64,000 nt of DNA from an uncultured Gammaproteobacteria bacterium (lineage in GTDB: Bacteria > Patescibacteriota > Microgenomatia > JALYQM01). The notes beneath the pieces are model-generated. The model was given only the letters and a program-made list of their open reading frames with translations. It did not search any database and was not told the origin of the DNA. Location of the stretch: positions 12,599-76,598 of the forward strand of contig CAZGHS010000005.1 of assembly GCA_964525495.1 (NCBI GenBank). The letters are read 5' to 3'. The position numbers were made by a program, and so were the translations under genes. Below, piece by piece: positions 21,576-46,744 of this stretch. The first letter of the stretch is position 1; every line of letters begins with the position of its first letter.

Positions 21576-21598
21576 AATATAATAAAAAAGAGGTGCAT

Positions 21599-25723: not shown

Positions 25724-25789
25724 TTTGTCATAGGAACAGCGTAAAAAATAGCTTTATCATTCTCCTTAAAGATGCTACTCTAATAGAGA

Positions 25790-28866: not shown

Positions 28867-30493
28867 ATGAAGAAATATCTCATTGTCATACTCTTTCTTG
28901 CAGCTATATTTCGCATCCCATTTCTAGATACTCACATGCCAGCCTTATATGGTGACGAGATATCAATCGGATATAATGCTTATTCAATCTTAACAACAGG
29001 CAAAGATGAGTTTGGGAAATTTCTTCCAATACAGTTTGAATCATGGGGCGACCAAAAAAATCCGGTCTACATCTATATTGTTTCTCTTTTCCAGATTGTG
29101 TTTAAGCTATTGGAGTGTGCGATTACCTTCAGCTCTTGCCGGCATTGGCGCGGTATATCTTACGTATCTATTATCCAAAACATTACTAAGTCTTAAATCA
29201 GATAAAGATAAAAACGTCGAAGTAACATCACTTATAGCAGCACTATTACTCGCCTGTAGCCCATGGCACATACATATTAGTAGGGGAGGGTATGAGGCAA
29301 ACCTCGCGCTCGCTTTAGGATTACTTGGAATAATATATCTTATAAATTTTATTGCTAACCCCTCTTCTAAAGCTTTTTATATAAGTTTGGGAGCATTCAC
29401 TCTTAGCATGTACACCTACTACACCACCAAAATGTTTATTCCTTTACTTATTATAGTTCTATTACTTTGGGGATGGGTGTATCTACAAAAATCAAAAACA
29501 TATGTCGTTCATTCACTAAAATATCTCGCGTTATTTTTTATAGTATGTCTTCCTATTGGGTATCTCGGTTTATTCGACAAGGGACAAGCACGGTTCCAGA
29601 CGATAAACATTTTTGCAAATCCTCAAGTACAGGAACGCGTTATCGCAGCACGAGCAAAATATCCCGCAGATTCATTCACTGTGTCATTACTTGAGAACAA
29701 ATACACATACTATGTAAGAGACTTCTTGGAGTATTATTTTGATAATCTTTCAGGACAATTCTGGTATGTATCGGGCGACAGCTCGCTACGATACACAGTA
29801 GGTAATCACGGAATGTTTTATCTTATCGAAGTCCCATTTCTTCTGATAGGTATTATCCTCATGTTCAAAAACAATAAAAAGGTCGCAGTACTACTTTTAG
29901 CCTGGCTATTGCTCGCACCACTACCTACGTCGCTTGTAGGAAAAGCCTATGGCCTGCGCTCCTTAGCAATGCTTCCTATACCGATGATTTTTGTAGCATA
30001 TGGTCTCGCGAATTCGCTCAACGCAGTCAGAAAATACAAATATCCTGCTATTGTGTCGGTTGCTGTTATCTACTGCATCTCAGTCATAAACTGGTCAGCA
30101 CGATACATAGTGCTTTATCCAACGTATGGACAATACTGGTATGACAGTATGCAGAAGGAAATGATTGATTATGCAAAAGCAAACGAAGACGACTATGATA
30201 ACATCATTCTAACGCGATTCTATGGTAAAACAGAAATGTATTATGCGTTCTATGAAAAAGTGGAGCCACAACAATACCAAGAGCTAAGTCAGAAAAAAAC
30301 CGAAATAGCAAATACACCTATGGTAAAATTTGGTAAATACTATTTCGGAGACATCGCAACAGCAGGTAAAGATTTTTCGCAATTACAACTCCCCCCACGC
30401 ACACTTGTAGTAGCTTCTCCGCAATTTGCATTTGGAACAGAAACGATCAACGCCAAAGACGATAAACGAATTCTATTCAAAGTAGTAAAATAG
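28867..30493 (+). pseudogene. GT39/PMT_2 (ArnT/PMT-like) GT-C glycosyltransferase paralog interrupted by a frameshift near 29105-29115 (two ORFs, 28867-29196 and 29006-30493, in different frames)
   Basis: The first ORF matches paralog N-termini (YGDEISIGYNAYSI...KNPVYIYIVSLFQIVFKLL) and the second continues the alignment (WSVRLPSALAGIGAVYLTYLLSK compared with WTTRFPSAFFGTLSIIVTYYL in the 30501 paralog). A 1-nt indel is required to join them. This could be true gene decay or a sequencing or assembly error. Confidence 0.6.
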
Positions 30494-30500
30494 ACAGATT

Positions 30501-32249
30501 ATGAAAGAAAAAATCCTCCTCAGTCTCATCATCCTCGCTGCAATAGTTATTCGTTTTTATAATCTTGGCCAAAATCCTCCCTCACTTTACTGGGATGAAA
30601 TAGCCTTGGGCTACAATGCCTATTCGATTGCCGAAACTGCAAAAGACGAGGAAGGTGCCTTCCTGCCTGTTCAATATTTTAGGTCATTTGGAGATTTTAA
30701 ACCGCCTGTATATATATATGCAGCCGTCCCGATGATCAAGCTATTGGGCTTAAATGAGTGGACCACTCGATTTCCTTCTGCTTTCTTCGGAACGCTTTCT
30801 ATAATAGTAACGTATTACCTAACAAGAAAAATCCTCATACGACAGACAAAATCAAATAAAGAAAACGAATTTTTAACTCAAAAAAGAATAAATTATATCG
30901 CTCTCATAGCAGCACTACTCCTAGCCCTATCGCCGTGGCATACACAAATATCACGAGTCGCGTATGAGGCAAATGTTGCGCATTTCCTAGCTTTAGTCGG
31001 AATATGGTTTTTCTTCATCGGCTTAGATAAACATAAATGGAAGCTAGGGTTCTTTCTCGGTTCTGGAATCAGTTTTACGCTCGCTATGTACACATTTAAC
31101 TCAAGTAGGGTATTTATACCGCTTTTGGTAGCGTCACTCCTATTTATATATATTAAGGAATTAGTGTCAAAAGAACAGCGCAATCTGAAGCCGTTCATTA
31201 TAGCGGCAATTATTTCTTTAGTATTAACCTTACCAGCACTACAACACATGCTGTCATCACAGGGTCAGTTGAGATATAAGGAAGTAAATATTTTTTCTAA
31301 CCAGGAGGTAGTCAAGCTCTCAAATCAACGCATTGAGCAAGCAGGTCACGCCTGGTGGGCAAACATTTTTAATAACAGACGAGTATTATTCGCTCAGGAC
31401 TGGCTCGACGGCTATTTTAGGCATTTTTCCGCGAAATTCCTACTTATATCTGGAGACGTAAACCCACGTTTTTCAATACAAGACATCGGTCAGCTCTACT
31501 TAGTAGAAATACCATTCCTTCTTATTGGTTTATATGTGATGCTCTCGCGACCAAATAAAAACTATGCATTTATCTTAGTTTGGTTACTGATGGCCCCTAT
31601 ACCTGCAGCATTTGCGCGCGAAGTACCTCACGCGCTACGAACATTAAATATACTTCCTACATTCCAAATTATAACTGCACTAGGATTTCTCTATACGATA
31701 TATGCGCTGCAACAGCGTGCAGGTAAATTCAATAGATATGCTGCACAAGGGATTATCGCAGGAAGCACGATATTGCTTATCGGACAACTATACTATTATC
31801 AGCACAATTATTACGACCACTACCCTAAATACTCTGAAACCGAATGGCAATATGGCTACAAACAAATGATGCAGGAGCTTTCTAAAATTGATCAAAATTA
31901 CGATCGCGTAGTTATCACCGATGGTCTAGGTCGCCCCTATATAAATGTACTCTTCTATAAACAATATTCACCTGCACTGTTCCAAGTCGAGCGAAAAGCA
32001 GAAACTGATCAAACAGGGTTTGGATTTATTAATGTATATGCTTTTAATAAATACCAATTTAGAGGAATAAATTGGAAAAAAGAGATAGCAGATCAGAAAA
32101 CAGAGGAAAAAGTATTAGTAGTAGGCACTCCGCAAGAAATTGAGGAAAACAAATTCACAAAGGCAACAGTAAAAAACCTCAAAGGACAAACTGTATTCAT
32201 ACTGAATGAAATACCCAAAGGACAGGATGCCTTACTTGAACTCAAATAA
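30501..32249 (+). CDS. GT-C fold glycosyltransferase, family 39/PMT_2 (ArnT/protein O-mannosyltransferase-like), polytopic membrane protein
   Basis: N-terminal TM segment then the conserved first-loop DE motif (LYWDEIALGYNAYSI). Many TM helices, 582 aa. Paralog of the genes at 28867, 32259, 39460 and 42867. Confidence 0.8.
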   Translation: MKEKILLSLIILAAIVIRFYNLGQNPPSLYWDEIALGYNAYSIAETAKDEEGAFLPVQYFRSFGDFKPPVYIYAAVPMIKLLGLNEWTTRFPSAFFGTLSIIVTYYLTRKILIRQTKSNKENEFLTQKRINYIALIAALLLALSPWHTQISRVAYEANVAHFLALVGIWFFFIGLDKHKWKLGFFLGSGISFTLAMYTFNSSRVFIPLLVASLLFIYIKELVSKEQRNLKPFIIAAIISLVLTLPALQHMLSSQGQLRYKEVNIFSNQEVVKLSNQRIEQAGHAWWANIFNNRRVLFAQDWLDGYFRHFSAKFLLISGDVNPRFSIQDIGQLYLVEIPFLLIGLYVMLSRPNKNYAFILVWLLMAPIPAAFAREVPHALRTLNILPTFQIITALGFLYTIYALQQRAGKFNRYAAQGIIAGSTILLIGQLYYYQHNYYDHYPKYSETEWQYGYKQMMQELSKIDQNYDRVVITDGLGRPYINVLFYKQYSPALFQVERKAETDQTGFGFINVYAFNKYQFRGINWKKEIADQKTEEKVLVVGTPQEIEENKFTKATVKNLKGQTVFILNEIPKGQDALLELK

Positions 32250-32258
32250 AGGATTTCT

Positions 32259-33995
32259 GTGCGACTAAAACTTCTTATAGCAATCATCTTCTTAGCTGCT
32301 GTACTCAGATTTTCGGGACTAGGATCAAATCCTCCAAGTCTGAACTGGGACGAAATTGCCATTGGCTGGAATGCCTATTCAATTCTACAAACAGGAAAAG
32401 ACGAGTTTGGACAGTATCTGCCATCTACATTTCGCTCGTTTGACGACTATAAATCTCCTGCATACATCTATGCAACAACTATTTCTATTGCACTATTCGG
32501 CAAAACAGAGTTCGCAGTCCGCTTCATGTCGGCATTAGCGGGAACAGCAACTGTGCCGCTGATGTATTACTTTGTAAAAACGTTACTTGTACAGAAAAAA
32601 GATGATACACCCAAAGACCAATACTGGATAAATAGAATAGATAATATGGCACTTTTTTCAGCAGGAATGTTAGCAATAACGCCATGGCATATTCACTTTT
32701 CTCGAGTCGCATTTGAGTCAAACTTTGCATTGTTTTGGGAAGTGCTCGGGGCGTGGCTCTTCCTGTTATCGTTACATAAATTCAAACAAAGCACGGTACT
32801 ACTTTTTGCTTCAGTCATAGCCTTCGGTATAGCACTTTACTCATATGCAAATGCACGGCTCTTCATAGTTCTTTTATTAATGGGATGGGGGATCTATTTC
32901 TTCAGAAAGCTTCTGAGCATGAAGAAAGGTTTAATTTTTGCAATAATCTTTGGTCTAATAATAGCGGTGCCTTTGATAAATCAGATGACGCAGGGAGTCG
33001 GTCTAGCACGATTCCAGGCGACGTCGATAGTTAATCGCCCAGAAGTATTCGCACGCAATAAAGAGCAGGCAGTAGAAGATTATCACGATGGGCAAGGCAC
33101 ATTAAGTGTCGTAGTACACAATGTGCGCCTTCCTTTAGTTCGGCAAGTTATTCAAAACTATTTAGACCATTACCAGTATTCATTTTTAGTCGTCAAAAGT
33201 GATTTACCCCGACATCAAGTTCCAGGCTTTGGATTACTCTATCCTTGGCAACTACCCCTCATTATTATCGGTACTGTATTTTTAATAAGCAGAAGAAAAC
33301 ACATCAATGCATTCCTACCACTCTGGTGGCTTCTGATTGCTCCCATACCGGCTGCAATCACCTGGCAAGTACCGCACTCAATTCGTTCACAACTCATGCT
33401 CCCTATACTCAGTATACTTTCTGCTATTGGACTATGGGCACTTTTAAAATATTTCCAACAGCTTGATTTGATTTCATATACACGATCACAAAAAAATAGA
33501 CTCATGTATACAGCGCATTGGGTGGGACCAAAAGTAGCATTTCTAGGGATTCTGGGTATAATTGGGCTATCTACGCTCCACTTTTCGCTCAACTATCAGC
33601 TCTATCTCCCTAAAGAATTCGCCAAGCAATGGTTGTATGGCCGTAAAGAAATGGTCGAAATAGTTGAGGCGGAAAAAGATAAATATGACACAATTATTGT
33701 AGATCTTTCAGTCGATTGGGCATATCTCTGGTTTTTGTGGTACGGAAACTACACGCCAGAGTGGTATTTAGCACAAGGAGGCACAGTCAGTGGTGGTTTC
33801 GAAGAAACTCAGAATAAGATAGGCAAGATTCAATTTAAACCATTCAATTTTGACCCTACATACTTTGGTTCGCAAAACATGCCGCCCAATTCGCTCTTTA
33901 TCGCCTTACCTGAGAGATTCCCTGGGAAACTCATACCATATAAAATGGTAAGAGATCCGGCGGGGAAACCAGCCATATATATTGTAAAAAGTTGA
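32259..33995 (+). CDS. GT-C fold glycosyltransferase, family 39/PMT_2-like (paralog)
   Basis: LNWDEIAIGWNAYSI loop motif; same architecture as 30501; 578 aa. Start codon is apparently GTG. Confidence 0.8.
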   Translation: MRLKLLIAIIFLAAVLRFSGLGSNPPSLNWDEIAIGWNAYSILQTGKDEFGQYLPSTFRSFDDYKSPAYIYATTISIALFGKTEFAVRFMSALAGTATVPLMYYFVKTLLVQKKDDTPKDQYWINRIDNMALFSAGMLAITPWHIHFSRVAFESNFALFWEVLGAWLFLLSLHKFKQSTVLLFASVIAFGIALYSYANARLFIVLLLMGWGIYFFRKLLSMKKGLIFAIIFGLIIAVPLINQMTQGVGLARFQATSIVNRPEVFARNKEQAVEDYHDGQGTLSVVVHNVRLPLVRQVIQNYLDHYQYSFLVVKSDLPRHQVPGFGLLYPWQLPLIIIGTVFLISRRKHINAFLPLWWLLIAPIPAAITWQVPHSIRSQLMLPILSILSAIGLWALLKYFQQLDLISYTRSQKNRLMYTAHWVGPKVAFLGILGIIGLSTLHFSLNYQLYLPKEFAKQWLYGRKEMVEIVEAEKDKYDTIIVDLSVDWAYLWFLWYGNYTPEWYLAQGGTVSGGFEETQNKIGKIQFKPFNFDPTYFGSQNMPPNSLFIALPERFPGKLIPYKMVRDPAGKPAIYIVKS

Positions 33996-34018
33996 GTAAA
34001 ACGGTATCCTATCGATAT

Positions 34019-34585
34019 ATGAAAAATGCAAAAATAGGTGTATTAGTACTTTTAATTGCGATAGCATTCACATCGTGTAGCTCAAAGCAACCAACAGAGT
34101 CGATCAGTCAAAGCGCAAATACTGTTGCATCCGCAGCTCCTCAAATTGATCCACAAGTACTCAAAGATACGTCAAAATGGAAGAAAGTTTCAAGCGATTC
34201 TCGATTTTTCAAATTTAACTTAATGGTTCCTGAAGGTGCAAAATATCAGTTCTCACCAGATACCGTCATGGGAACAGAAAACGGCGTATTTATCGCAGAA
34301 GATAGATTTCCGAACGGCTTAACTATTGAATACAATGCATTAAACGACCGAGATGCCCGGACTGTCACATTCAAATCTGACTATGTTAAGGGTAAACCAT
34401 CAGATATTGATTTTGGATTACCGAACGCAATAGTCGCGGAAGGAACGAATACTCGGGGACTCGCATATACACGTTACTTAGTTCGTAAAGATGACAATCT
34501 GTATATTCTATCAATCCAGACCAAGAACCCAGCGTATACCGAGGTATATAAAAACATAATCAAGAGCTTCAAAATCGAGAAATAA
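34019..34585 (+). CDS. Putative lipoprotein (hypothetical)
   Basis: MKNAKIGVLVLLIAIAFTSC signal with a lipobox-like FTSC. The ORF track starts at an upstream TTG (33992) overlapping the previous gene. No recognisable family. Confidence 0.5.
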   Translation: MKNAKIGVLVLLIAIAFTSCSSKQPTESISQSANTVASAAPQIDPQVLKDTSKWKKVSSDSRFFKFNLMVPEGAKYQFSPDTVMGTENGVFIAEDRFPNGLTIEYNALNDRDARTVTFKSDYVKGKPSDIDFGLPNAIVAEGTNTRGLAYTRYLVRKDDNLYILSIQTKNPAYTEVYKNIIKSFKIEK

Positions 34586-34592
34586 AATCTAA

Positions 34593-35265
34593 ATGAATCA
34601 CTTTCGATTCAATTCTTATCTGCCTACATTAAGTAGCATTTCAGATGTTATAAAGCAGATGGAGTTACTCCAAGCAGAGCTTGAATCAAGCGATCTACGA
34701 AACCTACGTTTTTTTAATCGAACCTATCTGTTGATCACCCTAGCCGTACAAAACAAACTTGGTGCTCACTTTCTCGACAATGATCAACGCATGGTCAATT
34801 TTGACATCGCCTTTGCCAAATACTATTTTGATGCGCTAAGAGAATATTGCCTAAATAAGCAAATCGCACCTGCTTGGCAACAGTGTTTCGAAAGCGCGCG
34901 CTCCAAAAAACTACCTCATACTATATATGGCGCTCGGAGTCAACGCACACGTCAATAACGACCTGCCACTCGTACTCCAAGGCTGTCAATTAGGAAATGA
35001 ATACAAATCAGATTTTAAAAAAATAAATACAGTAATCGCGCAACAATTACACGACGTTTTTAATTCATTGCATGAAACAGATCTACTATTCCGACTCCTC
35101 ATACAGCTTCAAATAATATTTTTTCCACTACTTAGCGCGACTATCGGGAATTGGAGAGCTGCTGCTTGGAACAACTACGAAAAATTGTTAGCAGGAGAAA
35201 CTAACAAAAATAAAATTGAACACGAAGCATGGTTAGGTAGCCAATTCCTTCTCAAATTGTCGTAA
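34593..35265 (+). pseudogene. Conserved hypothetical gene split into two ORFs (34593-34958 and 34927-35265) by a +1 frameshift at an A6 homopolymer (34903-34908)
   Basis: Removing one A from the run joins the frames to give ...SKNYLILYMALGVNAHVNNDLPLVL..., a continuous plausible sequence containing a conserved-looking LG[VM]NAH[IV]N.DLP motif. The ORFs are co-directional and overlapping. Confidence 0.5.
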
Positions 35266-35754
35266 TTGATCAATCTGTGTTGTAGTAGGCCGAATAAACG
35301 TACGAACTTTTTTAACAAATTCGTACGCATCCTGAAATGTCATACCAGTAAACATTAAATAAGCGATTACCATTGAAGGACCTCGGCCTTCACCCCAGTG
35401 GCAATGAACGTACACACTCCCGCCTTTTTTTATCTCCTCATCCATAAACTGTACTCCCTTCCTTAAATTCTCAAGCGTTGGCGCATGAAAGTCAGGGGTA
35501 GGTAAGTGCAATATACGAAAATCTTGTTGAGCAGTCGGATTATGAATCGCGCTCATACGCATGTTCACAATGGCTGTAATACCAAGCTTTTTAAGTGAAG
35601 ATATACGCCTCAAGCTATACTGACCACCCAAAAACAGATTTTTAGTCAACATACTTCGTTTCACTTGCGGCATCCCTCGTACATGCAGCCAAAGGTGATC
35701 GATAGCCCGTTGTATTTCTACTCGTAATTTAGCAAAGTAGTTAAATATACTCAT
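35233..35754 (-). CDS. Dual-specificity/tyrosine-type protein phosphatase (CX5R active site)
   Basis: VHCHWGEGRGPS matches the HCxxGxxR(S/T) P-loop. 173 aa. Confidence 0.7.
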   Translation of the reverse strand: MSIFNYFAKLRVEIQRAIDHLWLHVRGMPQVKRSMLTKNLFLGGQYSLRRISSLKKLGITAIVNMRMSAIHNPTAQQDFRILHLPTPDFHAPTLENLRKGVQFMDEEIKKGGSVYVHCHWGEGRGPSMVIAYLMFTGMTFQDAYEFVKKVRTFIRPTTTQIDQLRQFEKELAT

Positions 35755-35760
35755 ACAAGA

Positions 35761-36666
35761 TTATGCAGTGGGAACTAATATCCGCAGTGCTTGTGGAATA
35801 ATTTTAGCGCTAATATTTTTTGTTGTCATTTCTAAATCATCACACATAACTGTTTGACTAGAAGGCACAACAATCGATACTTCCTTAGCTTGCCAATGTG
35901 AATACACGTCCTCAGCTTTTTGCTGCATTAAAGCACTTCCCGCAGCTTTCATAACCGAAGGGAGATCACCCTTATGCAAAACTATTACATCAAGCATTCC
36001 ATCAGTGCTATCACTATCCGGAACCATCGAGACATCTTGAAGTCCAATATTGCCGACATTTCCAATCACGATAGCCACACCTTCAACATCTTTCGTTACA
36101 CCATCAATTATCAAAGAATATTTCTGAGGTTCAGATTGTAAAATATGAGAAATTGCAGTAACACCATATGCCAACTGTCCGATAGCCGCCTTCAAATTCG
36201 GATCTGCTTTAGATACCATATCAGCAACAAAGCCTATATTAATACGCAAAAGAAAATAATCATCACCGCACATGCCAATATCCATCCGCTTTTCAGTTAG
36301 AGAACCGGTCTTTATGAGATCAAGAGCGGCTTTACTATCGATAGGCATTTTTAACTCTTTAGCAACAACATTCGCAGTGCCACCAGGCAGTACAAACATA
36401 GGAATATCTTGATGAGCCAAAGCTTGCGCTACCTGACAGACCGTACCGTCACCTCCATAAACACATATAAGATCAGCTCCTGAGTGTATTAAACCTTCTG
36501 CAAATTCCTTTGCATCGCCCTCTTTTTTAGTAACAAGCACGTCCCAATGAATCTCCGAATCCTTAAAAGCTTCAGCTATAAAAGACAAAATAGCTTCATC
36601 TTTACCTGAAACCGGATTGACAATTATTTTAATATTTTTATACACAACAGTATAAATATAACACAC
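35761..36666 (-). CDS. Lipid kinase of the diacylglycerol-kinase catalytic domain family (YegS/BmrU-like)
   Basis: IIVNPVSGK...LICVYGGDGTV...LPGGTANVVAKEL are DAGK_cat signature motifs. 301 aa. Confidence 0.7.
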   Translation of the reverse strand: MCYIYTVVYKNIKIIVNPVSGKDEAILSFIAEAFKDSEIHWDVLVTKKEGDAKEFAEGLIHSGADLICVYGGDGTVCQVAQALAHQDIPMFVLPGGTANVVAKELKMPIDSKAALDLIKTGSLTEKRMDIGMCGDDYFLLRINIGFVADMVSKADPNLKAAIGQLAYGVTAISHILQSEPQKYSLIIDGVTKDVEGVAIVIGNVGNIGLQDVSMVPDSDSTDGMLDVIVLHKGDLPSVMKAAGSALMQQKAEDVYSHWQAKEVSIVVPSSQTVMCDDLEMTTKNISAKIIPQALRILVPTA

Positions 36667-36741
36667 ACCAACAACATTAATAGCAGTGATGAATAACCGA
36701 TTCTAAAAACCTATCGAGAGCAGTATAATAGCAAATACTGC

Positions 36742-37929
36742 ATGAAAAACTATATCAACCTTATCCCCATCCTATTCGGATTACTAATAATAATACTAAC
36801 GGTTTTCTTTCTGTCCATGAAATCTAAAAATAATTCTACCACGGATAACACACAAGCCATTCTTCAATCCTCATGGCAGCAGTACAAAAAAGATTTCATC
36901 ACGCCAGAAGGTAGAGTAGTGGATCCAACGCAGAACAACACCACAACATCCGAAGGCCAAAGCTATGCGCTACTGCGCTCTGTCTGGATAAACGACAAGA
37001 TAATGCTTGACAGGGTCTGGAAATTTACCAAAGAAAATATGAAGCGCCCTTCAGATAATCTCTTCGGATGGAAGTGGGGTCGGAGATCAGACAACACAAA
37101 TGGGCCCCCACCAAATGGAGGAGAGGGTTCCGCAAGTGATGCATCAAACGACATCGCACTAGCCTTAATCCTAGCTTCTAATAAATGGAACGATCCCGCG
37201 TACATTACTGAAGCAAAATTAGTGCTCACAAGTTTGTGGGAAGTAGAAACCGCTGAAGCAAACGGCAAAAGATACCCAACAGCAGGAAATTGGGCTACTT
37301 CAAACACAGAAATAGTGATTAACCCATCATATTTCACTCCGTATGCCTGGAGAATTTTCGCAGCAGTCGACCAAGATCACGATTGGAACTCACTGATAAA
37401 TCCATCCTACGAGCTTTTAACGAAAGCATCACAAAGCAATTTAGATAAATCGTCATCAGCAAATCTGCCTCCGGATTGGGTTATTATAAACAGGCAAACA
37501 GGAGAATTATCTGCAGTAAAAAATCCCGATCTTACCACCAAATACTCCTACGACGCGATCCGTATACCATGGCGAATCGCTCTAGATTATCAATGGAACA
37601 AAGATCCACAAGCAGCAACCTATTTAAGTCAATTAAAATTTTTGTCACAAGAATACAATCAAAACAAAAAACTTTTTGCTGAACATACACATGATGGTCA
37701 AATAGTGGGAAGATATGAAAGTGCTTCAATGTATGCAACTGCCCTGGGATATTTCATGATTCACGACAAAAAAAATGCTGATGAGATATATCAACAAAAA
37801 ATCCTTCAGCAATACGTCACTACAGAAAATACATTTAAAAAAGATGTACCTTATTACGAACAAAACTGGCTATGGTTTGGAATAGGACTGTATAAAGATG
37901 TACTTACAAGGTATAACATTACTAAGTAA
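36742..37929 (+). CDS. Glycoside hydrolase family 8-like (endoglucanase/BcsZ-type) with an N-terminal membrane anchor
   Basis: TSEGQSYALL resembles the GH8 catalytic-region motif TSEGQ[SG]Y. N-terminal TM segment; 395 aa. A TATAAT at about 36724 lies just upstream. Confidence 0.65.
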   Translation: MKNYINLIPILFGLLIIILTVFFLSMKSKNNSTTDNTQAILQSSWQQYKKDFITPEGRVVDPTQNNTTTSEGQSYALLRSVWINDKIMLDRVWKFTKENMKRPSDNLFGWKWGRRSDNTNGPPPNGGEGSASDASNDIALALILASNKWNDPAYITEAKLVLTSLWEVETAEANGKRYPTAGNWATSNTEIVINPSYFTPYAWRIFAAVDQDHDWNSLINPSYELLTKASQSNLDKSSSANLPPDWVIINRQTGELSAVKNPDLTTKYSYDAIRIPWRIALDYQWNKDPQAATYLSQLKFLSQEYNQNKKLFAEHTHDGQIVGRYESASMYATALGYFMIHDKKNADEIYQQKILQQYVTTENTFKKDVPYYEQNWLWFGIGLYKDVLTRYNITK

Positions 37930-37938
37930 AATTAAATT

Positions 37939-39456
37939 ATGCTTAATCTAAAAGTGCTCCAAAAGAAACTTCAGCGAGTAGACCAAAAAACCGCACTCAT
38001 ATATAGTACCCTCGCCGTAATAGTCCTGGTTGGTTTATTCCTCCGTATCAATGATTTCTCCAATCGCATTTACATTGGAAACGAACAGGGGCGCGACTTT
38101 TTCATTAGCCTCGTTGCCGCTCAGGAGCTCCAGTTACCCATGACTGGCCCATGGTCATCCATCGGCCCGATCACAACCGGACCCTGGTACTGGTATTACC
38201 TCATTCTCATGCGACACCTAATTCCGCACATGTTATCACCTTGGATTGCAACGACCATAGCCTCTCTTCTTACAATCCCCATAATGTATAAAATAGGTAG
38301 CTTAATCTATGACAGATATTTCGGTCTAATATTAGCTGCTCTGGCAGCCTTTTCAATCACACTTATTGAAGCAAGTATTTATCTCACAAACCCATACTTA
38401 TTGGGGTTTACCTCATCACTGACAGTACTCTGTTTCCTTTTGAGCTTCCGTAGCAAGCGTATGATTTATCCGGCGCTTACGGGTCTGTTAGTAGGTATCG
38501 ATTTACAAATTCACTATCAGGCACTTATGCTTGTAGTGCTCCTATTCGGATTTTTTCTTTTGCCTTCTCAGAAAATCAAAGCATTTGCATACTCACTCTT
38601 AGGTTTGTTCATATCCGCAATCCCAATGGGGTTCTTTGAACTGAATAATCATTACTTCAACATATGGCACATGGCCGACTTCTATTTCAATGTCTCAGAA
38701 ACATTCTATACACCACGCCGATGGCTTACTTTCACTACAAACACCTTTCCTAAACTCTGGGGAGATGTGACGGGAGGCGGACTACTTATTGGCAGATTAG
38801 GAATGGTCCTCTCAGGGGTGACGCTCGCGTTTCTCTGGTGGAAAAAGAAGCTCAATAAGGAATCAGTAATTCTAATTATTGTTTTCGCTATACAAATAAT
38901 AAGTATTCGGTATTGGGTAGGGGAAATCTATGTAGCCCGCATACAGTATTTAATTCCATGGATACTGCTATTCACTGGAGCTGTACTCTATACTGCGATT
39001 CGTATACATAAACTTCTAATAGTACTTTTGCCGTTATATATACTTCTCATTTGGTCATCAGTAAGCTCTTATGTGTTCTCACCCAACAAGGATCTAGTAA
39101 GAATCAGACAAGAATTACAACAAATACAACAGAGATATCCGAATGAAAAATTTAGCATTTATTATTGTGAGGTAGACCGTATTTCAAGGGATATGAAGGA
39201 TAACTATTTCATGACTATGTATATGGAAAATATGTATAGCGAAAACGGAAGAAAGATCGCCATATGGCGAAAACGAAATATTCCAATCGTAGACGAAGAA
39301 TGTGGAACCCCGACAAACATTGTACCTGTCATAACTAGTGTTTGGGACATAAATGATGATGAAAATGATGCGTTAACTAAAAAGGGATGGAAAGAGGAGT
39401 CACCAACAAATTTGTACAATCGCTCAGTAAAGTGGTGGTACGACGAAAAGCCATAA
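37939..39456 (+). CDS. Polytopic membrane protein, possible uncharacterised GT-C-like glycosyltransferase
   Basis: 505 aa, more than 10 predicted TM helices, with an N-terminal TM segment followed by an acidic loop (GNEQGRDFF) in the position of the DE loop of GT39 enzymes. No confident family match. Confidence 0.4.
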   Translation: MLNLKVLQKKLQRVDQKTALIYSTLAVIVLVGLFLRINDFSNRIYIGNEQGRDFFISLVAAQELQLPMTGPWSSIGPITTGPWYWYYLILMRHLIPHMLSPWIATTIASLLTIPIMYKIGSLIYDRYFGLILAALAAFSITLIEASIYLTNPYLLGFTSSLTVLCFLLSFRSKRMIYPALTGLLVGIDLQIHYQALMLVVLLFGFFLLPSQKIKAFAYSLLGLFISAIPMGFFELNNHYFNIWHMADFYFNVSETFYTPRRWLTFTTNTFPKLWGDVTGGGLLIGRLGMVLSGVTLAFLWWKKKLNKESVILIIVFAIQIISIRYWVGEIYVARIQYLIPWILLFTGAVLYTAIRIHKLLIVLLPLYILLIWSSVSSYVFSPNKDLVRIRQELQQIQQRYPNEKFSIYYCEVDRISRDMKDNYFMTMYMENMYSENGRKIAIWRKRNIPIVDEECGTPTNIVPVITSVWDINDDENDALTKKGWKEESPTNLYNRSVKWWYDEKP

Positions 39457-39459
39457 GAG

Positions 39460-41109
39460 ATGAAACAACTGACAGCATACATCTTTCATATAATTTTTGC
39501 TGCAATCATAGTACTTGCAACAGGGTTACAATTATTCCGTCTCAATTCTGCACCTGGTGGGGGCTTGGTAGACGAACCAGCCTTTGGATATAGCGCGTAT
39601 TCAATGCTGACTGACTTAAAAGACGAACACGATGTCTTTTTGCCGCTCGTGTTCGAATCATATGGCGATCAGAAAATGCCCCTCTACGTGTATATACTCG
39701 TCCCATTCATTAAAATATTAGGACTAACAGATGCTGCAGTCAGGCTACCGGCCGTACTCAGCGCAATAGTACTGATTCCTTTAGCATACATATTACTCAG
39801 ACAGTGCGGTGTTTCAAAATGGGGAGCAGTTACAACCTGTGCAGTTTTTGCCTTCTCACCATTTGCTTTCATGATGGGCAGAATCGGGCGTGAATCAACT
39901 CTTGGTCTAGTTTTTTATATTCTCGCCCTTATAACATTCTTCCACGCGCTCAAAACAAAAAAATATCTCTACATAATTCTTTCCGTTATATGTTTCGCAG
40001 GTTCCTGGTACAGCTATGTTGCGTATAGATTTGTAACGATCTTTACCTTACCTGTCCTCTACGGAGTATCACTATGGAAAAACCAACTACCGTTCAAACA
40101 GGCAATCATTGCAGCTTTTGCCTTCATACTTCTCATAATTCCTTCAGCCACCGCTGGCTCCATCTTAACTGCTCGAGTAAACCAAGTAGGTATATTCGCT
40201 GACAAAGGCGCTGCGCTTGAGATTACGGAGAAACGGCAGTATTGTGCGCAAAATAACGGAGGAGTGTTATGTCGAATAAACGCAAATAAAGGCGTAGTCT
40301 ATGGCAGAAGAATTATTTCCGAATGGATACAAGCCTTCTCCCCTCAATATTTATTTTTGACGGGAGACAAAGAACTTTTTGTACAAAACGTCGAAAACTA
40401 TGGTCAATTTAGTCTATTTACATTACCCCTCTATTATCTCGGCCTGTTCGCATACTTTCGTAATAGAAAAGAGTACAACCAAACTCATTGGTATATATTT
40501 CTCCTTATCATCCCACTCGCAGTCCTTCCAGCAGTTATCGCTGGACTCCATCAGAAAATGCGTACTGCACCTTTCGTATTCCTTAGTCTGATTCCTATAG
40601 CGTTCGGATTAGACTATGCACTGAATACAGTGCGTTCATATACGAATCATTACAAAGTGATAAGTGCATTAATACTAACCTTTTTAATTTTCGTTTCAAC
40701 AATCATTTTTCAGTTAGACTTTCATACAGTTCATATCTCAAAATATAGCACGCTGTATAACGCACAGCTCACACCCCTCATGAAATTTTTAAAACAATAT
40801 GAAGACAAGACTCCCGTATACATAGCGACATTCTCAAGTGACCCGATTATGTTTTACGCGTTTTATAACCAAGTATCCCCTGTAGACTACAGAAAAAACG
40901 TGACCTACTTTGACCGAGACGGTGGGGGATTCAAACATGCACAATCATATAAGCAAATCAGAATTCAAGATATTGACCCTCAAACAATCCAAGAAAAAAG
41001 ATTTCTGTATGTTACAGATAAGAAATTACCTTACAAACAAATATATGTAGGGAAAACAGAAAACAAAGTGCACGAACTAGTTTATGTCTACGAAATAGAG
41101 AAAAACTAA
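39460..41109 (+). CDS. GT-C fold glycosyltransferase, family 39/PMT_2-like (paralog)
   Basis: LVDEPAFGYSAYSM loop motif after the first TM segment; 549 aa; polytopic. Confidence 0.75.
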   Translation: MKQLTAYIFHIIFAAIIVLATGLQLFRLNSAPGGGLVDEPAFGYSAYSMLTDLKDEHDVFLPLVFESYGDQKMPLYVYILVPFIKILGLTDAAVRLPAVLSAIVLIPLAYILLRQCGVSKWGAVTTCAVFAFSPFAFMMGRIGRESTLGLVFYILALITFFHALKTKKYLYIILSVICFAGSWYSYVAYRFVTIFTLPVLYGVSLWKNQLPFKQAIIAAFAFILLIIPSATAGSILTARVNQVGIFADKGAALEITEKRQYCAQNNGGVLCRINANKGVVYGRRIISEWIQAFSPQYLFLTGDKELFVQNVENYGQFSLFTLPLYYLGLFAYFRNRKEYNQTHWYIFLLIIPLAVLPAVIAGLHQKMRTAPFVFLSLIPIAFGLDYALNTVRSYTNHYKVISALILTFLIFVSTIIFQLDFHTVHISKYSTLYNAQLTPLMKFLKQYEDKTPVYIATFSSDPIMFYAFYNQVSPVDYRKNVTYFDRDGGGFKHAQSYKQIRIQDIDPQTIQEKRFLYVTDKKLPYKQIYVGKTENKVHELVYVYEIEKN

Positions 41110-42791
41110 TCTGCAATTTTTTCTTTAATAAAACCTTTTTCTAACAATCGAGCAGTAACTTCGTCCACAGCATCTTTGCGGATATAAAGTTTTGCTTCAA
41201 TATCCACCTTCAACGTTATCGACGTAGTAGTAACATATGCTTTGTTCCCTTTGCGGTAATCAACGTAATGCACGTACTCTTCCGACAAGAAATCCAAAAA
41301 AGGCACACCAAATGTTTCCGGACTTTTACCTAAAACATAAAAATATTTATCAAAATAGATAACTTTGGGGCGTTTACTACGAATCTCATCAGTCATTGGT
41401 TGGACCAATCCCGCCTCTTTCATCGCTGGGATCATGATCTGGTATCGAGAAGGCACTTGAGCATTCATGTACCACAAATCCTCAAAAGCAAATGGACCTA
41501 TCCACGCATAGTCGTCTTTAGTTATTGCTGCATTCACCATAGGAGCAATGTCAGGACGATCATAAATTAATGGCATTAGACCCATATATTTACTGTAGGC
41601 TTTATCGGAAAAATATTTAATAAATGTCAGTGAAGAGAAGCTAAACAAAATTCCACAAATACCAAACAACCCATATAATATAAACATTTGCGGCCGGTTA
41701 AATGACTTGTCACGCAAGGCAACATACGCTCTCCACAAAAACACAAACGAAACAAATAAACACAACACAAAATACACAGCAATCTGGTAATCAGGCTCTT
41801 TAGACGTCAAAGGATTACTACGAACATTGGCAAAAGTTAAAACACCTAATGTAAACGCAGCGAATATAAACTGTTTTCTAAATAACAAATAGATCACAAA
41901 ACACACAAACCCCACAGCCAAAGCAACATTCACAGGATACTGCAAACTAGCACTAGGAACCTGCGTCAACAGGCTTAGCGTATTTGAAAAAAACATATAC
42001 GTAATGGCTACTGCATAACGAATCGGATTAAACGAAGACGATCCTTCCGGTCGAGGATAATTATAAATATAATAATTTTTGTTAAATTCATACGCCTGGC
42101 GATAAAAATCTCCAAGATTACCTTGAATAGCAAATACAACAAACAAAAATATAAATGGAGCGCTCAAAAAACCAATAGCCGTAAATGCTTCTTTTAATAC
42201 GATTTTTTTACCATTGAAAAAATACCGATACAGCAAGAATGAATAGAACAAAGAACACACAAAAAAGTAAGTAAACGAACTCGTAAGCGCAAGAAAAACC
42301 AGCAGTCCAGGTACGAAAAGTTCTCTCGGGGTAATAGAACGCTCATATAGTACAAGCCCGGTACAGAATGCAAACACAGGCAATAAGAAAAGTGCCGCAA
42401 TACTGTCAGCAAGCAACATGTGTCCCCAAAAATAGGTCAGTGTAACCTGAAGAAAAAACAGAAACAGCAAGTATAGTCGACTAAATTCTGAAGGAAAACG
42501 TTTCCGTATAAACCAGTAACTCCATAAGAGATAGATACAAAGCAAAATGGCATACACTATGCGGAAACCAAAAAACGAAATGCCTGAAAACAATTGAGGT
42601 ATAACTGCAACAAAATATGCAGTCGGTCCATGGTGGGTAAAAAAGTCAGAATAAATCGGCTTACCTTCAATTAGGTACCGGCCTCCCAGAATATTGTCAA
42701 ACTCATCTGGATAGGACTCATGGACAGTATTTATCAGTCCAATACTAAAAAACAGGATAATTAAAAGAGTAACCTTTAAGTAATGCCACAT
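41106..42791 (-). CDS. Polytopic membrane protein, possible GT-C-like glycosyltransferase (opposite strand, within the GT39 array)
   Basis: 561 aa. N-terminal TM segment then SYPDEFDNILGGRYL (a DE-containing first loop), followed by many TM helices. No confident family match. Confidence 0.4.
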   Translation of the reverse strand: MWHYLKVTLLIILFFSIGLINTVHESYPDEFDNILGGRYLIEGKPIYSDFFTHHGPTAYFVAVIPQLFSGISFFGFRIVYAILLCIYLLWSYWFIRKRFPSEFSRLYLLFLFFLQVTLTYFWGHMLLADSIAALFLLPVFAFCTGLVLYERSITPRELFVPGLLVFLALTSSFTYFFVCSLFYSFLLYRYFFNGKKIVLKEAFTAIGFLSAPFIFLFVVFAIQGNLGDFYRQAYEFNKNYYIYNYPRPEGSSSFNPIRYAVAITYMFFSNTLSLLTQVPSASLQYPVNVALAVGFVCFVIYLLFRKQFIFAAFTLGVLTFANVRSNPLTSKEPDYQIAVYFVLCLFVSFVFLWRAYVALRDKSFNRPQMFILYGLFGICGILFSFSSLTFIKYFSDKAYSKYMGLMPLIYDRPDIAPMVNAAITKDDYAWIGPFAFEDLWYMNAQVPSRYQIMIPAMKEAGLVQPMTDEIRSKRPKVIYFDKYFYVLGKSPETFGVPFLDFLSEEYVHYVDYRKGNKAYVTTTSITLKVDIEAKLYIRKDAVDEVTARLLEKGFIKEKIAD

Positions 42792-42866
42792 ATTCCAAAT
42801 TCAGTATATCACTCAAAATATAGTATGCACGCCCACGATCCGGTATAATACCAAAAGAACAACAGC

Positions 42867-44513
42867 ATGATAAAAAAAGCCATTATTTTAGCCATTATTG
42901 TCATCGGAATTACACTCAGGTTCTATAACCTCGGAGAGGTTCCTTATTCAATGGACTGGGATGAAGTTTCACTGGGGTACAACGCGTATTCCATGTTATT
43001 GCAAGGAACCGACGAATACGGCAATACCTGGCCTCTCTCCATTCGTTCATTCAACGACTACAAACCACCAGCTTACGCGTACTTCACAATTCCTTCTATC
43101 GCACTCTTCGGACTTGATCAGTTTTCTATTCGTGCACCAAGCGCATTCTTTGGCTCGCTTACCATCATTTTTGTTTACCTGTTAACTCGTGAATTTTTTA
43201 AAAACTCAAAAAACAGCCAACTTCGTGAATATGCACCATTGACTGCGATGTTCATTTTTGCGATCTCGCCCTGGTCTCTGCAATTTTCTCGAGCAGCATT
43301 CGAAGCAAACATAGCAGTCTTCTTTGTGGTATCAGGAATGTGGGCAATCCTTCATTATTTGAATACTCAAAAGCCTAAATGGATCTACCTCAGCGCACTA
43401 TTATTGGCGGCTTCATTTTACTGTTATCACGCACCCCGCCTCGTAGTTCCACTTCTTCTTCTCGGCGTACTAATACGCTATCGTAATGCATTCAAACAGC
43501 AATACAAACATGTAATTATTGCCTCAGTTATCGCCCTCATATTCATAGCGCCTCTGGTAATTGTTCTGTTCCGAGGTACCGCTTCATCGCGCTTCACATC
43601 GGTCTCAGTGTTTAAGCCTTCCTTCGAAATGTTGCGAACCTTAGAATACGCCAGAGAAGACGAAGTAAAAGGCAAATGGGAATCCATATTTCACAATAGA
43701 AGAATGATTTACGCCTTGAGCATTGTAGAAGGATACGCAGACCATTTTTATCCCAGCAGTATGTTCCTCAAAGGAGATCCAGTACAACGTCATCATGCTC
43801 CCGGCATGGGTCATTTCTACTTACTCGAATTTCCTTTCTTCATCATTGGACTTATATTTCTTCTAAAAAAGAAGTTCAACTTTAAATGGCTATTCTTCTA
43901 TTGGTACTTTATTGCGCCAATTCCTGCAGCAATCTCAACCGGCACACCGCACGCCATTCGCAGTATTTTATTCTTGCCCATCCCACAGATCATGATTGCG
44001 GTTGGACTGATCGTGGCAATAAACTGGTCAAGGCAACAAATACAAAAAATCTCAAAATCCAAAGCACTCATATATTTCCCAGCTATACTCGTTATCCTCT
44101 CGTACATAGCAAACTTCACGTATTATCTCAATCAATATTACGTAAACTTAGATAAAGAGTACGCTCGTGAATGGCAATATGGCTATAAAGAATTAGTAGA
44201 AACGCTCAAGCCTATAGAAGATAAATATGACAAAATTCTGGTAACTACCGCCTGGGACCAGCCATATATATACTTTCTCTATTACAAAAACTATGATCCT
44301 CGAGTTTGGATAAACAATGGAGAATTCAATAAAGGGTTCGATAAATACGAATTCCGGCGTGTAATCTGGGCAGAGGACAGGAATTTAAAAAATACATTAA
44401 TAGTGGGAAGTTTCGGAGAAATTCCAGAAGGTGAGTCAGGAACGCTAAAAGTTATTACATTTCCTGATGGGAAACTCGACGCTTTTAGAATCTATGATAA
44501 TCCCAACGACTAG
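42867..44513 (+). CDS. GT-C fold glycosyltransferase, family 39/PMT_2-like (paralog)
   Basis: MDWDEVSLGYNAYSM loop motif; 548 aa; polytopic. Confidence 0.8.
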   Translation: MIKKAIILAIIVIGITLRFYNLGEVPYSMDWDEVSLGYNAYSMLLQGTDEYGNTWPLSIRSFNDYKPPAYAYFTIPSIALFGLDQFSIRAPSAFFGSLTIIFVYLLTREFFKNSKNSQLREYAPLTAMFIFAISPWSLQFSRAAFEANIAVFFVVSGMWAILHYLNTQKPKWIYLSALLLAASFYCYHAPRLVVPLLLLGVLIRYRNAFKQQYKHVIIASVIALIFIAPLVIVLFRGTASSRFTSVSVFKPSFEMLRTLEYAREDEVKGKWESIFHNRRMIYALSIVEGYADHFYPSSMFLKGDPVQRHHAPGMGHFYLLEFPFFIIGLIFLLKKKFNFKWLFFYWYFIAPIPAAISTGTPHAIRSILFLPIPQIMIAVGLIVAINWSRQQIQKISKSKALIYFPAILVILSYIANFTYYLNQYYVNLDKEYAREWQYGYKELVETLKPIEDKYDKILVTTAWDQPYIYFLYYKNYDPRVWINNGEFNKGFDKYEFRRVIWAEDRNLKNTLIVGSFGEIPEGESGTLKVITFPDGKLDAFRIYDNPND

Positions 44514-44573: not shown

Positions 44574-46091
44574 ATGAATGAAACAGGTAAAAAAGTAGTA
44601 ATTCTCGGAGCAGGACTCGCAGGTTTAGCCTGTGGGCACGAGCTCACTAAGAAGTCCGATACTCAAGTGACATTAGTTGAAAAAAACCCCTATGCTGGTG
44701 GTTTAGCTGTTACATTCCGTAAAAATGGCTTTGTCTTCGACTCTGGGCCTCATCGATGGTTCACCAAATCTGACGAAATTGACGAGTGGATGCGAGATCT
44801 TCTCAAAGGAGAGCTTACTGACGTCAATCGCCTCACCCGTATCTACTATAAAGGTAAATACTATAACTACCCACTCAAGCCGCTCAACGCGCTTGCAAAT
44901 CTCGGTATCTTTCATGCAGTCTGGGCTATTTTGTCATATTTCAAAACACGTATCGCCATAAAAACTGGCCTTCGTACACCCTCAAACGAAAACATGAAAG
45001 ACGCCTATATTAACCTTTTTGGCACCAAACTATACTACGAATTCTTCCACTATTATACAGAAAAACTCTGGGGTAAAAAAACCACTGAACTTTCAGGCGA
45101 CTGGGTCTCGCAGCGCGCAAAAGGTTTAAGTATCTGGGGTGCAGTCAAAGATTCGTTTATTAAATCTAAAAACGTTGTCAGTTTAATAGACAAATTTATC
45201 TACCCCAAAACCGGGTTTGGTCGCATCGCCGAAAAGCTCGAGGAAGATATTCTTAAAAAATCACAGAACAAGATCCAACTCTCCCAAGATGTCATAAAAA
45301 TTGATTGGTCAGAGAAAGATGGCGAAAAACACATCAACTCCATAACCGTCACCCAAACACACGCAAAAGATATCCACGACGAACACATAGAAATTAGCCG
45401 CAAAGAACTTGGAAGTAAGCCGACCGCACAGAGCGATCAAACAGAAACATTAACTGCTGAGAACTTTGTTTCTAGTATCCCGCTCACAGAATTAGTACTT
45501 AAACTTACTCCAGCAGCCGATGAAAACGTTATTCAAGCAGCCAAAGGCTTATCCTATCGCGACGAAATACAAGTCACAGTTATGGTCAACAAAGCACACT
45601 TCACTCCAGACAACTGGGTCTATACCCAAGACTCCAAACTTATTTTCGTGCGTCTCATGGAAATGGATGCTTGGACCGACGGTCTTTCACCTGAAGGCAC
45701 GACATCAATAGTATTCGAACTCGCATGCCAAGAGGGTGACGAGCTATGGAACATGAAGGACGAGGACATTGTGACTAAAGTAGCCGAAAACTATATCGCA
45801 GAATTCCATTACTTCGAAAAAGAAAATATTGTGGGCTCATACGTTCACCGTGTACCAAAAGAATATCCTGTCTACGATCTCGGCTACAAAGAAAAAGTCG
45901 AAGCGCTTAAAGAGTATCTCAAAGGATTCAAAAATCTCCAGATCATCGGCCGCAATGGAACATTCAAGTATAACAACTCAGACCACTCAATCCAAATGGG
46001 TCTCTATGCTGCCAGAAATATCATGGGTGAAAATTACGATCTCGAAAACGTCAACACCGACCGTGCATATCACGAAGTAAAAAAGGTTTAA
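44574..46091 (+). CDS. FAD/NAD(P)-binding oxidoreductase (amine-oxidase/UDP-galactopyranose-mutase-like Rossmann fold)
   Basis: N-terminal dinucleotide-binding motif VVILGAGLAGLACGHEL...VEKNPYAGG; 505 aa. The exact substrate cannot be assigned from sequence alone. Confidence 0.65.
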   Translation: MNETGKKVVILGAGLAGLACGHELTKKSDTQVTLVEKNPYAGGLAVTFRKNGFVFDSGPHRWFTKSDEIDEWMRDLLKGELTDVNRLTRIYYKGKYYNYPLKPLNALANLGIFHAVWAILSYFKTRIAIKTGLRTPSNENMKDAYINLFGTKLYYEFFHYYTEKLWGKKTTELSGDWVSQRAKGLSIWGAVKDSFIKSKNVVSLIDKFIYPKTGFGRIAEKLEEDILKKSQNKIQLSQDVIKIDWSEKDGEKHINSITVTQTHAKDIHDEHIEISRKELGSKPTAQSDQTETLTAENFVSSIPLTELVLKLTPAADENVIQAAKGLSYRDEIQVTVMVNKAHFTPDNWVYTQDSKLIFVRLMEMDAWTDGLSPEGTTSIVFELACQEGDELWNMKDEDIVTKVAENYIAEFHYFEKENIVGSYVHRVPKEYPVYDLGYKEKVEALKEYLKGFKNLQIIGRNGTFKYNNSDHSIQMGLYAARNIMGENYDLENVNTDRAYHEVKKV

Positions 46092-46159: not shown

Positions 46160-46744
46160 ATGAAAAAATTTATCGCTATTGCAGGTACTGCACTTTTATT
46201 AGCAGCTTGTACACCTAAAGCTCCCGCAACCACAGAAACAGATATTATGGAACCAGTAGCCACGCCGGTAGTGACAGCGCGTCCAACAGGCACACCTATT
46301 GCTATGATGAATGAAGGATCAAGCAGCGCAAAACCATCTTTCAAACTCACTGCACAAAACAATTCCAAGCAAGACGGCACAGTAATGTTTGAAGAAGTCG
46401 CCGGAAAAGTAAAAGTAACTGTCCAGGTTGCAAACGCAACAGCAGCAGCTGAGCCAGCACACATTCATGCAGGTGTCTGTCCTAAGCCAGGTGACGTAAA
46501 ATATCCACTCACAGACGTAGTAAACGGAAAGTCTGAAACAACATTACCAGCAGGTGTAACACTCGCTTCACTCGCAGATCTCGGTAAACTATCTGTAAAT
46601 GTACACAAGTCTAAAGCTGAGATAGCAACCTATCTATCTTGCGGCAACCTAGACTTTTCAGCATCAATGACAAAAGCAAGCCCATCAGGTTCAGCGATGA
46701 CTTCAAGCAAAGCATCTGCTTCACCAAAAGCATCGGCTATGTAA
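46160..46744 (+). CDS. CHRD-domain lipoprotein
   Basis: Lipobox LLAAC. PAHIHAGVCPKPGDV and LSVNVHKSKAEIATYL fit the CHRD AHIH.G..G and YVNVHT patterns. Confidence 0.55.
   Translation: MKKFIAIAGTALLLAACTPKAPATTETDIMEPVATPVVTARPTGTPIAMMNEGSSSAKPSFKLTAQNNSKQDGTVMFEEVAGKVKVTVQVANATAAAEPAHIHAGVCPKPGDVKYPLTDVVNGKSETTLPAGVTLASLADLGKLSVNVHKSKAEIATYLSCGNLDFSASMTKASPSGSAMTSSKASASPKASAM

Follow-up and report, generated by a model that had tools for sequence, protein, structure and literature searches.

The subject of this analysis is an array of seven genes (A to G) for large polytopic membrane proteins, which belong or appear related to the glycosyltransferases of the C-type fold (GT-C). The array lies at positions 28867-44513 of a 64,000-nt stretch of contig CAZGHS010000005.1, hereafter called the window. 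Such arrays are standard across the Microgenomates, the uncultured group of the candidate phyla radiation (CPR) to which the source organism belongs, and the array in the window is not unusual. With rather more conviction than doubt, we read the region as this genome's copy of a GT-C island conserved in the Microgenomates, in which sugars carried on polyprenyl phosphate would be transferred outside the membrane, preferably to an envelope glycan. Our verdict is that the type of system is known and that the array represents a variant of it that has so far not been characterised. For this window the main value of the analysis is corrective. An earlier, sequence-only reading of the same DNA had seen a striking paralog expansion and had proposed that it O-glycosylates the adjacent giant surface proteins, whereas the array proves to be typical of its lineage and its link to the giant proteins circumstantial.

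The ORF listing contains all seven large polytopic open reading frames (ORFs), and Pfam models, profile comparisons and fold support their designation as GT-C genes. The proposed five paralogs of the PMT_2 family were borne out by hidden Markov model (HMM) assignment, as five proteins scored above the gathering threshold of PF13231 (26.1 bits). These are the products of gene A (28867-30493, plus strand; 34.9 bits, E 2e-8), gene B (30501-32249, plus strand; 582 aa, 34.5 bits), gene C (32259-33995, plus strand; 578 aa, 27.0 bits), gene E (39460-41109, plus strand; 549 aa, 33.1 bits, E 8e-8) and gene G (42867-44513, plus strand; 548 aa, 51.4 bits). Their pairwise identities of 24-36% mark these five, as judged from sequence, as ancient true paralogs and not chance matches. 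Gene E is the most divergent among them, with 24-26% identity to the others and an ortholog of 47% identity in a close relative (L084). Homologs of G were found in metagenome-assembled genomes (MAGs) of Gottesmanbacteria, Levybacteria and further CPR of the Microgenomates type, and where their sources name them, they are called 'glycosyltransferase family 39 protein' or 'Ara4N transferase-like'. Many public MAG records with such islands (L002, L007-L009 and many more) are titled 'uncultured Gammaproteobacteria bacterium', which looks like a mislabel. A scan for promoters and terminators was uninformative, with fewer promoter-like sites than in shuffled sequences.

The two remaining proteins are more distant. 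Gene D (37939-39456, plus strand; 505 aa) reached 22.2 bits with PMT_2, below the threshold, and its family matched the G family in a profile-profile comparison (hhalign probability 98.8%, E 6e-17), which identifies D as a remote PMT_2 homolog. Gene F (41106-42791, minus strand; 561 aa) matched no Pfam or NCBIfam family, and its family showed no profile similarity to the G family (hhalign probability 2.8%). What ties gene F to GT-C is its predicted fold: in a Foldseek search, the AlphaFold2 model (pLDDT 90) matched only GT-C enzymes, namely STT3, ArnT, PglB, DPY19, AftA and Pmt4. The 307 homologs of gene F are all unnamed and free of Pfam domains, and at E<=1e-3 the family counts 1,245 representatives among the 1.84 billion proteins of the library searched.

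Gene A is broken, as the sequence-only reading had noted. It consists of two ORFs (28867-29196 and 29006-30493) parted by one +1 frameshift near 29100-29110, at a site with no homopolymer. However, the two frames are 59% and 52% identical to the intact ortholog in L002 over its whole length (tblastn), which points to a single break and not to broad decay. The truncated ORF also exists as a called product in a public NCBI assembly. In the same region, a DUF5995 gene (34593-35265) is split into two overlapping ORFs of 121 and 112 aa, while its ortholog in L083 (15767-16444) is intact with 225 aa. This non-homopolymer frameshift, the second within 6 kb of that in gene A, reflects either real decay or an assembly error.

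All of the array proteins have the membrane core of the GT-C fold. The best TM-scores of the paralog models were obtained with ArnT (0.54), and in structure comparison STT3, ArnT and Pmt came closer than Emb, Aft and PimE. At the sequence level, a search of the PDB with G returned nothing, and the profile of the G family reached ArnT as the sole PDB sequence (E 0.037) and no PMT. With the ArnT equivalog model (NF009784), G scored 26.3 bits against a cut-off of 567, and the other paralogs did not match; NCBIfam models as a whole gave only far sub-threshold matches to the array proteins, to Agl23 and ArnT. The Pfam model of the PMT family (PF02366) matched only B and C, over positions 3-111 of its 245, that is, in the N-terminal part; A, E and G were not matched, while some members of the wider family match it almost over its full length. 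The PMT_4TMC and MIR domains of Pfam were not matched by any array protein.

An invariant DE dipeptide follows the first transmembrane (TM) helix in the alignment of the G family, B, C and E included. The regular expression for the first loop that the sequence-only reading had given for five genes fits strictly in B and G, whereas A (GDE, within an intact GDEISIGYNAYS motif), C (GW) and E (VDEPAFGYSAYS) deviate from it. A first-loop DE had also been claimed for the two further proteins. It is present in F, whose family carries an invariant HESYPDEFDN with the PDEFDN stretch, but not in D, where the loop reads NEQGRD with a family consensus of DQGRD aligned on the DWDE motif. By the positive-inside rule, the acidic first loop would lie on the membrane's outer face. 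In B, G and their orthologs, the last TM helix is directly followed by a second, almost invariant motif, W-Q-Y-G-Y-[KR], which reads WWQYGY in several of the orthologs. The WQYGY lies at 44172-44186 in G (residues 436-440) and at 31854-31868 in B, where WQYGYK follows the last helix. The corresponding motif of C is WLYGR, and A and E lack WQYGY. Oligosaccharyltransferases (OSTs) bind their acceptors with a WWDYGY motif, of which we take the WQYGY of B and G to be reminiscent, as a lead only. A profile of the C-terminal domain with WQYGY found no OST in the PDB.

To place the array in its lineage, we scanned one genome per species, which gave 80 loci, all from CPR of the Microgenomates type. 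Labels beginning with L denote loci of relatives, among them three closer ones (L081-L083) and the close relative L084. Using the family HMM, at least two PMT_2 paralogs were found within about 21.6 kb in 79 of the 80 loci and at least four in 49, with a maximum of eight, so that the clustering, far from being a striking expansion, is the Microgenomates norm. GT-C-like genes made up 70% of the 1.54 Mb sampled across these islands, and the median locus had nine GT-C-like genes and two glycosyltransferase family 2 (GT2) genes. Reciprocal-best orthologs were detected for B in 67 loci and for G in 72, at about 40% identity, and for C in 15; the B ortholog is directly upstream of the G ortholog in most loci. 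Within the window, B and G are only 33% identical, below the identity of their orthologs, indicating that the duplications took place before the class diversified. That orthologs correspond one to one in all of the class also favors conserved housekeeping roles over adaptation to neighboring genes. The order A-B-C is kept in L002/L081, L082 and L083.

Other families recur in these islands. Neighbor clustering detected YfhO in 42 of the 80 loci, GalE in 29, the D family in 46 and the F family in 7, and GT87-like and PIG-V-like GT-C proteins also recur in the islands of relatives. Two unannotated polytopic families, which hhalign connects only weakly with the PMT_2 family (probability 66-74%), are probably further GT-C families: c2, which is present in 65 loci with 113 copies altogether and has an H-D-G motif that is invariant in its first loop (for example, L005 15597-17249), and c12 (for example, L013 6352-8340 and L002 8061-10004). 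Neither matches a Pfam model. Three GT-C-like families, F, c2 and c12, are thus without a Pfam model, and F is also without an NCBIfam model. We found no description of these arrays in the literature on CPR glycosyltransferases, although the limited coverage makes this weak evidence that they are undescribed; the arrays appear uncharacterised rather than provably new.

The five proteins encoded upstream of the array sum to 8,708 aa and are rich in Thr and Ser, in agreement with the roughly 8,700 aa described before. However, not all of this sequence is Pro-rich: the Thr-Pro linkers, long stretches of the PTPTATPT type, are confined to three of the five proteins, the secreted multidomain proteins g3 to g5 (17814-28390, plus strand), which are candidate acceptors only. 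One upstream protein contains six Laminin_G_3 domains. The adjacency of the array to such giants is not conserved, and the link between them is circumstantial. A protein with Thr-Pro linkers occurs in none of the 80 loci, which together contain only six ORFs of at least 700 aa other than YfhO. In L081 and L082, whose A orthologs are 52% identical, no giant protein is encoded within 10 kb upstream of A, and small housekeeping genes are found there. The closest relative found, L083 (A ortholog 61% identical), keeps the linker-free Laminin_G_3 protein g2 (42%) and the small gene at 28425 (74%) but lacks g3 to g5; in their place are genes for LPG_synthase_TM, two PAP2 proteins, DAGK and a 673-aa membrane protein.

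On the donor side, the sequence-only reading had pointed to a GT2 gene and a flippase some distance downstream, and the relatives show that both belong with the array. In the window, a GT4 gene (56428-57483, plus strand), a Wzx-like MOP flippase gene (Polysacc_synt; 57401-58825, plus strand) and a GT2 gene (about 58797-59600, plus strand) follow each other, all identified by Pfam. The GT2 resembles ArnC and DPMS, with DPMS as a PDB match (5mlz, E 9e-14) besides GtrB and ArnC. Its orthologs in L001 and L002 are 77-78% identical; they are found 7-8 kb downstream of the G ortholog and are preceded, as in the window, by GT4 and a Wzx-like gene. The block G-FAD-CHRD-GT2-GT4-Wzx-GT2, in which FAD and CHRD stand for the two genes next to G described below, is contiguous in L001; L002 has the same block minus the first GT2, and in L082 the block runs from G to Wzx, where the locus ends. 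In the three relatives, these genes lie about 4-8 kb downstream of G. The first GT2 of the block corresponds to a GT2 gene at 51568-52488 (minus strand; Glycos_transf_2, E 2e-22), with a 62% identical ortholog in L001. In many loci, genes of this type are neighbors of D-, F- or c2-family genes. In L043 (16189-18468) and L061 (18752-21049), an N-terminal GT2 is fused to a D-family membrane domain in a single ORF, and the window's 51568 protein is 40-42% identical to the GT2 half of these fusions. At least one GT2 gene, ArnC/DPMS-like, is present in 73 of the 80 loci; one of 257 aa, typical of the islands, matches ArnC (8e-19) and archaeal DPMS (1e-18) throughout its catalytic domain. These partnerships, by fusion and by adjacency, support a scheme in which GT2 enzymes load polyprenyl phosphate and GT-C enzymes transfer the sugar outside.

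Directly 3' of the G ortholog in L001, L002, L081, L082 and L084, as in the window, is a gene for an FAD oxidoreductase (44574-46091, plus strand; 432 bits with NF005548, a 'hypothetical protein' model), followed by a CHRD-like lipoprotein gene (46160-46744, plus strand). The oxidoreductase occurs in 13 of the 80 loci. Its best PDB matches are UDP-galactopyranose mutases, over the N-terminal 180 aa only, and it could be a sugar-modifying flavoenzyme. Its identification as a UDP-galactopyranose mutase was rejected, as it scored 59 bits with the equivalog model against a cut-off of 304, and we keep it as a lead only.

The genes within and around the array contain further elements of polymer and lipid metabolism. 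A membrane-anchored, BcsZ-like glycoside hydrolase of family 8 (GH8; 36742-37929, plus strand; Glyco_hydro_8, E 5e-51) has an N-terminal TM anchor and scores 146 bits with the BcsZ model, below its cut-off; the gene ends 9 nt upstream of D. In L084 (386-8117), the genes after a GH8 ortholog (58%) encode a cellulose-synthase-like GT2 of 508 aa and two PMT_2 proteins that are not related to D, and a second GH8 gene, on the minus strand, occupies the position of F. The gene content between GH8 and E thus varies among close relatives, in a manner that resembles the variation of surface-glycan cassettes. Upstream of the GH8 gene are genes for a dual-specificity phosphatase (35233-35754, minus strand) and a lipid kinase of the DAGK/YegS type (35761-36666, minus strand), both assigned by Pfam, which may act in the turnover of a lipid carrier. 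The pair recurs in L083 at this position inside the array, which there has PAP2 and LPG_synthase_TM genes at its flanks. Taken together, the GH8, the synthase-like GT2 of L084, GT4, Wzx and the lipid-phosphate genes slightly favor envelope glycan assembly.

Family, fold, conservation and gene partnerships are shown by the comparisons above, whereas we infer the donor type, the topology and the acceptor in the following scheme. Cytoplasmic GT2 enzymes, with the 58797 and 51568 types as candidates, would load single sugars onto polyprenyl phosphate, and the Wzx-like MOP protein encoded at 57401, the sole flippase candidate in the window, may carry them across. Each polytopic GT-C protein (A to C, E and G, and also D and F) would then transfer its sugar to an acceptor outside, using the acidic motif of the first loop. 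As the acceptor we prefer a glycopolymer or lipoglycan of the envelope. GT4 and GT2 enzymes would prime it in the cytoplasm, Wzx would flip it, and extension or decoration would follow outside. Alternatively or additionally, one or more paralogs may O-glycosylate Ser/Thr-rich secreted proteins. As the paralogs are ancient and have one-to-one orthologs, each probably makes one linkage or serves one acceptor class. The general mechanism, in which GT-C enzymes use lipid-linked sugars outside the membrane and are tied to the distal GT2 and Wzx, is very probable in our estimate and agrees with the polyprenyl-phosphate-dependent type that had been proposed, given the Pfam assignments, the folds, the occurrence of GT2 genes and the GT2-D fusions. 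The acceptor is much less certain: we put a glycopolymer or lipoglycan at roughly an even call, while proteins in general seem possible but unlikely, and lipids very improbable.

Several observations weigh against this reading. The fold of the paralogs is equidistant from STT3, ArnT and Pmt, so that protein-modifying enzymes are as close as lipid-modifying ones, and the DE motif, the partial PF02366 matches and WQYGY would all fit peptide acceptors. The 51568 GT2 resembles GmaR and SunS above DPMS in the PDB. No flippase of the GtrA type was detected, as the window contains no small ORF with multiple TM helices. In addition, the 80 loci were centered on orthologs of G, and their gene densities are figures for the island and not for whole genomes.

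The idea that the array is dedicated to the adjacent giant proteins, with each paralog serving its own Thr-Pro linker or sugar, has arguments in its favor: three neighbors bear long linkers of the PTPTATPT type, the paralogs have a PMT-like DE loop and match the PMT and PMT_2 models, and in the pgf cluster of S. mutans, a GT2, an epimerase, two GT-C enzymes and the Ser/Thr-rich adhesin substrates are encoded side by side (bioRxiv 10.1101/2024.05.05.592596). However, we consider it improbable, as the comparison with relatives does not support it. Linker proteins are missing from all 80 loci, where other large ORFs are rare as well; housekeeping genes take the place upstream of A in L081 and L082; L083 has an ortholog of g2 and none of g3 to g5; and the paralogs predate the class diversification, whereas the giants are variable. 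A general O-glycosylation, by some or most paralogs, of extracytoplasmic regions rich in Ser and Thr in many secreted and membrane proteins, likened to the Pmt of actinobacteria, the streptococcal GtrB/PgtC2 or the seven PMTs of yeast, is another possibility, in which B and G might possibly form a heterodimer similar to Pmt1-Pmt2. The DE motif, the PF02366 matches (near full-length in some family members), the adjacency of B and G in most loci, the OST-like WQYGY and the known use of GT2 and GT-C for protein glycosylation in monoderm bacteria are all consistent with it. On the other hand, the known bacterial systems use one or two GT-C enzymes, compared to a median of nine per locus here; PMT_4TMC and MIR domains were not detected, the C-terminal domain profile retrieved no OST from the PDB, and the GH8, synthase-like GT2, GT4 and Wzx neighbors would be left unexplained. 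We therefore regard general O-glycosylation as a tentative, minority explanation.

A modification of membrane lipids or lipid-anchored molecules similar to that by ArnT, altering surface charge or resistance, seems highly improbable. ArnT is the only PDB sequence that the family profile reached and gave the best TM-scores, homologs are named 'Ara4N transferase-like' by their sources, and a lipid kinase, PAP2 and LPG_synthase_TM genes are close by. However, the equivalog score is 26 bits against a cut-off of 567, and one lipid modification would not require many conserved paralogs. Moreover, synthesis of lipid A is not known from CPR bacteria. Rather doubtful, taken as a whole, is also a more far-reaching proposal, in which the island is the main assembly line for envelope glycans and glycoproteins, with about ten GT-C-like families, and B and G are a new clade of protein glycosyltransferases. 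Under that joint proposal, the WWxYGY of B and G would bind peptide acceptors in the manner of OSTs, and the Thr-Pro linkers would be among the substrates. As compared to these alternatives, the envelope-glycan reading remains the one that we prefer.

That reading has close parallels among known systems. Three-component systems consist of a GtrB-type GT2, a flippase and a GT-C enzyme, such as CsbB/YfhO for teichoic acids and GacI/GacL for the streptococcal rhamnan. The islands share with them a GT2 similar to ArnC, DPMS and GtrB encoded with polytopic GT-C proteins, an acidic loop after the first TM helix, predicted on the outer face, and the YfhO genes in relatives; they differ in that a locus has many GT-C genes where those systems have one, and in that no GtrA-type flippase is present and the only candidate is the Wzx-like MOP protein. 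The mycobacterial and corynebacterial sets EmbA-C, AftA-D, MptA-C and PimE are likewise made up of many diverged GT-C proteins, each with a conserved ortholog, and are fed by polyprenyl-phosphate-sugar synthases, to which the island GT2 genes would correspond; the mutase-like flavoenzyme beside G and, in relatives, genes of the GT87-like and PIG-V-like kinds add to the likeness. In contrast, the genes here form tandem runs in genomes that measure about 1 Mb, Emb, Aft and PimE come less close in structure than STT3, ArnT and Pmt, and arabinan or mannan chemistry is not known from CPR. The preferred model thus resembles mycobacterial Emb/Aft/Mpt or the decoration of teichoic acid and rhamnan in Gram-positive bacteria.

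Neither GT39 nor ArnT is a suitable label for the array genes. The GT39 label of the sequence-only reading is not established, as in contrast to GT39 PMTs the proteins lack PMT_4TMC and MIR, B and C match PF02366 over its first 110 or so positions only, no PDB PMT is reachable by sequence, the fold is no closer to Pmt than to STT3 or ArnT, and the C-terminal soluble domain with WQYGY is a different one. With ArnT (GT83), they share a length of about 550 aa, a TM core with a C-terminal domain predicted to lie outside and the best TM-score, but the identity is only 12-13%, the equivalog model is far from reached, and lipid A is not an acceptor to be expected in this organism. The Pgf system of S. 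mutans and GtrB/PgtC2 of S. pyogenes also combine GT2 with GT-C and glycosylate Ser/Thr-rich extracytoplasmic regions (bioRxiv 10.1101/2024.05.05.592596), whereas they work with one or two GT-C enzymes, which belong to the YfhO family; here the enzymes are PMT_2 proteins and the adjacency to candidate substrates is not conserved. Given this streptococcal precedent, the idea of protein O-glycosylation is mechanistically sound, but the system would not be of a new kind.

The genomes of CPR bacteria measure about 1 Mb, and hardly any of their envelope biochemistry has been characterised by experiment. A conserved island that spans at least 20 kb, about 70% of it GT-C genes, implies that glycosylation outside the membrane is a major conserved investment for the Microgenomates, and it probably shapes the surface presentation of these episymbiont-like cells. 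Handles for its study are provided by the conserved B and G orthologs, the F family for which no model exists, the GT2-GT-C fusions that pair donors with transferases, and the variable cassette region.

Elsewhere in the window, a 477-aa protein is encoded at the end of the GT4/Wzx/GT2 cluster (62545-63978, minus strand). It has C-terminal TM segments and no Pfam or NCBIfam match, and could be a polymerase- or ligase-like component. Among the secreted proteins, one of 3,626 aa (2063-12943) is composed of 15% Thr and 12% Gly, with repeated T-rich segments and no Pfam domain, and a surface protein of 1,253 aa (17814-21575) has a glucose/sorbosone dehydrogenase (GSDH) domain fused to PKD, Laminin_G_3 and Thr-Pro linkers. 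A stand-alone GSDH gene is located 28 kb away (49277-50446), beside ZnuABC. The possibility that ZnuABC and this GSDH gene form an insertion specific to the window was ruled out, as the same pairing and arrangement are present in L084.

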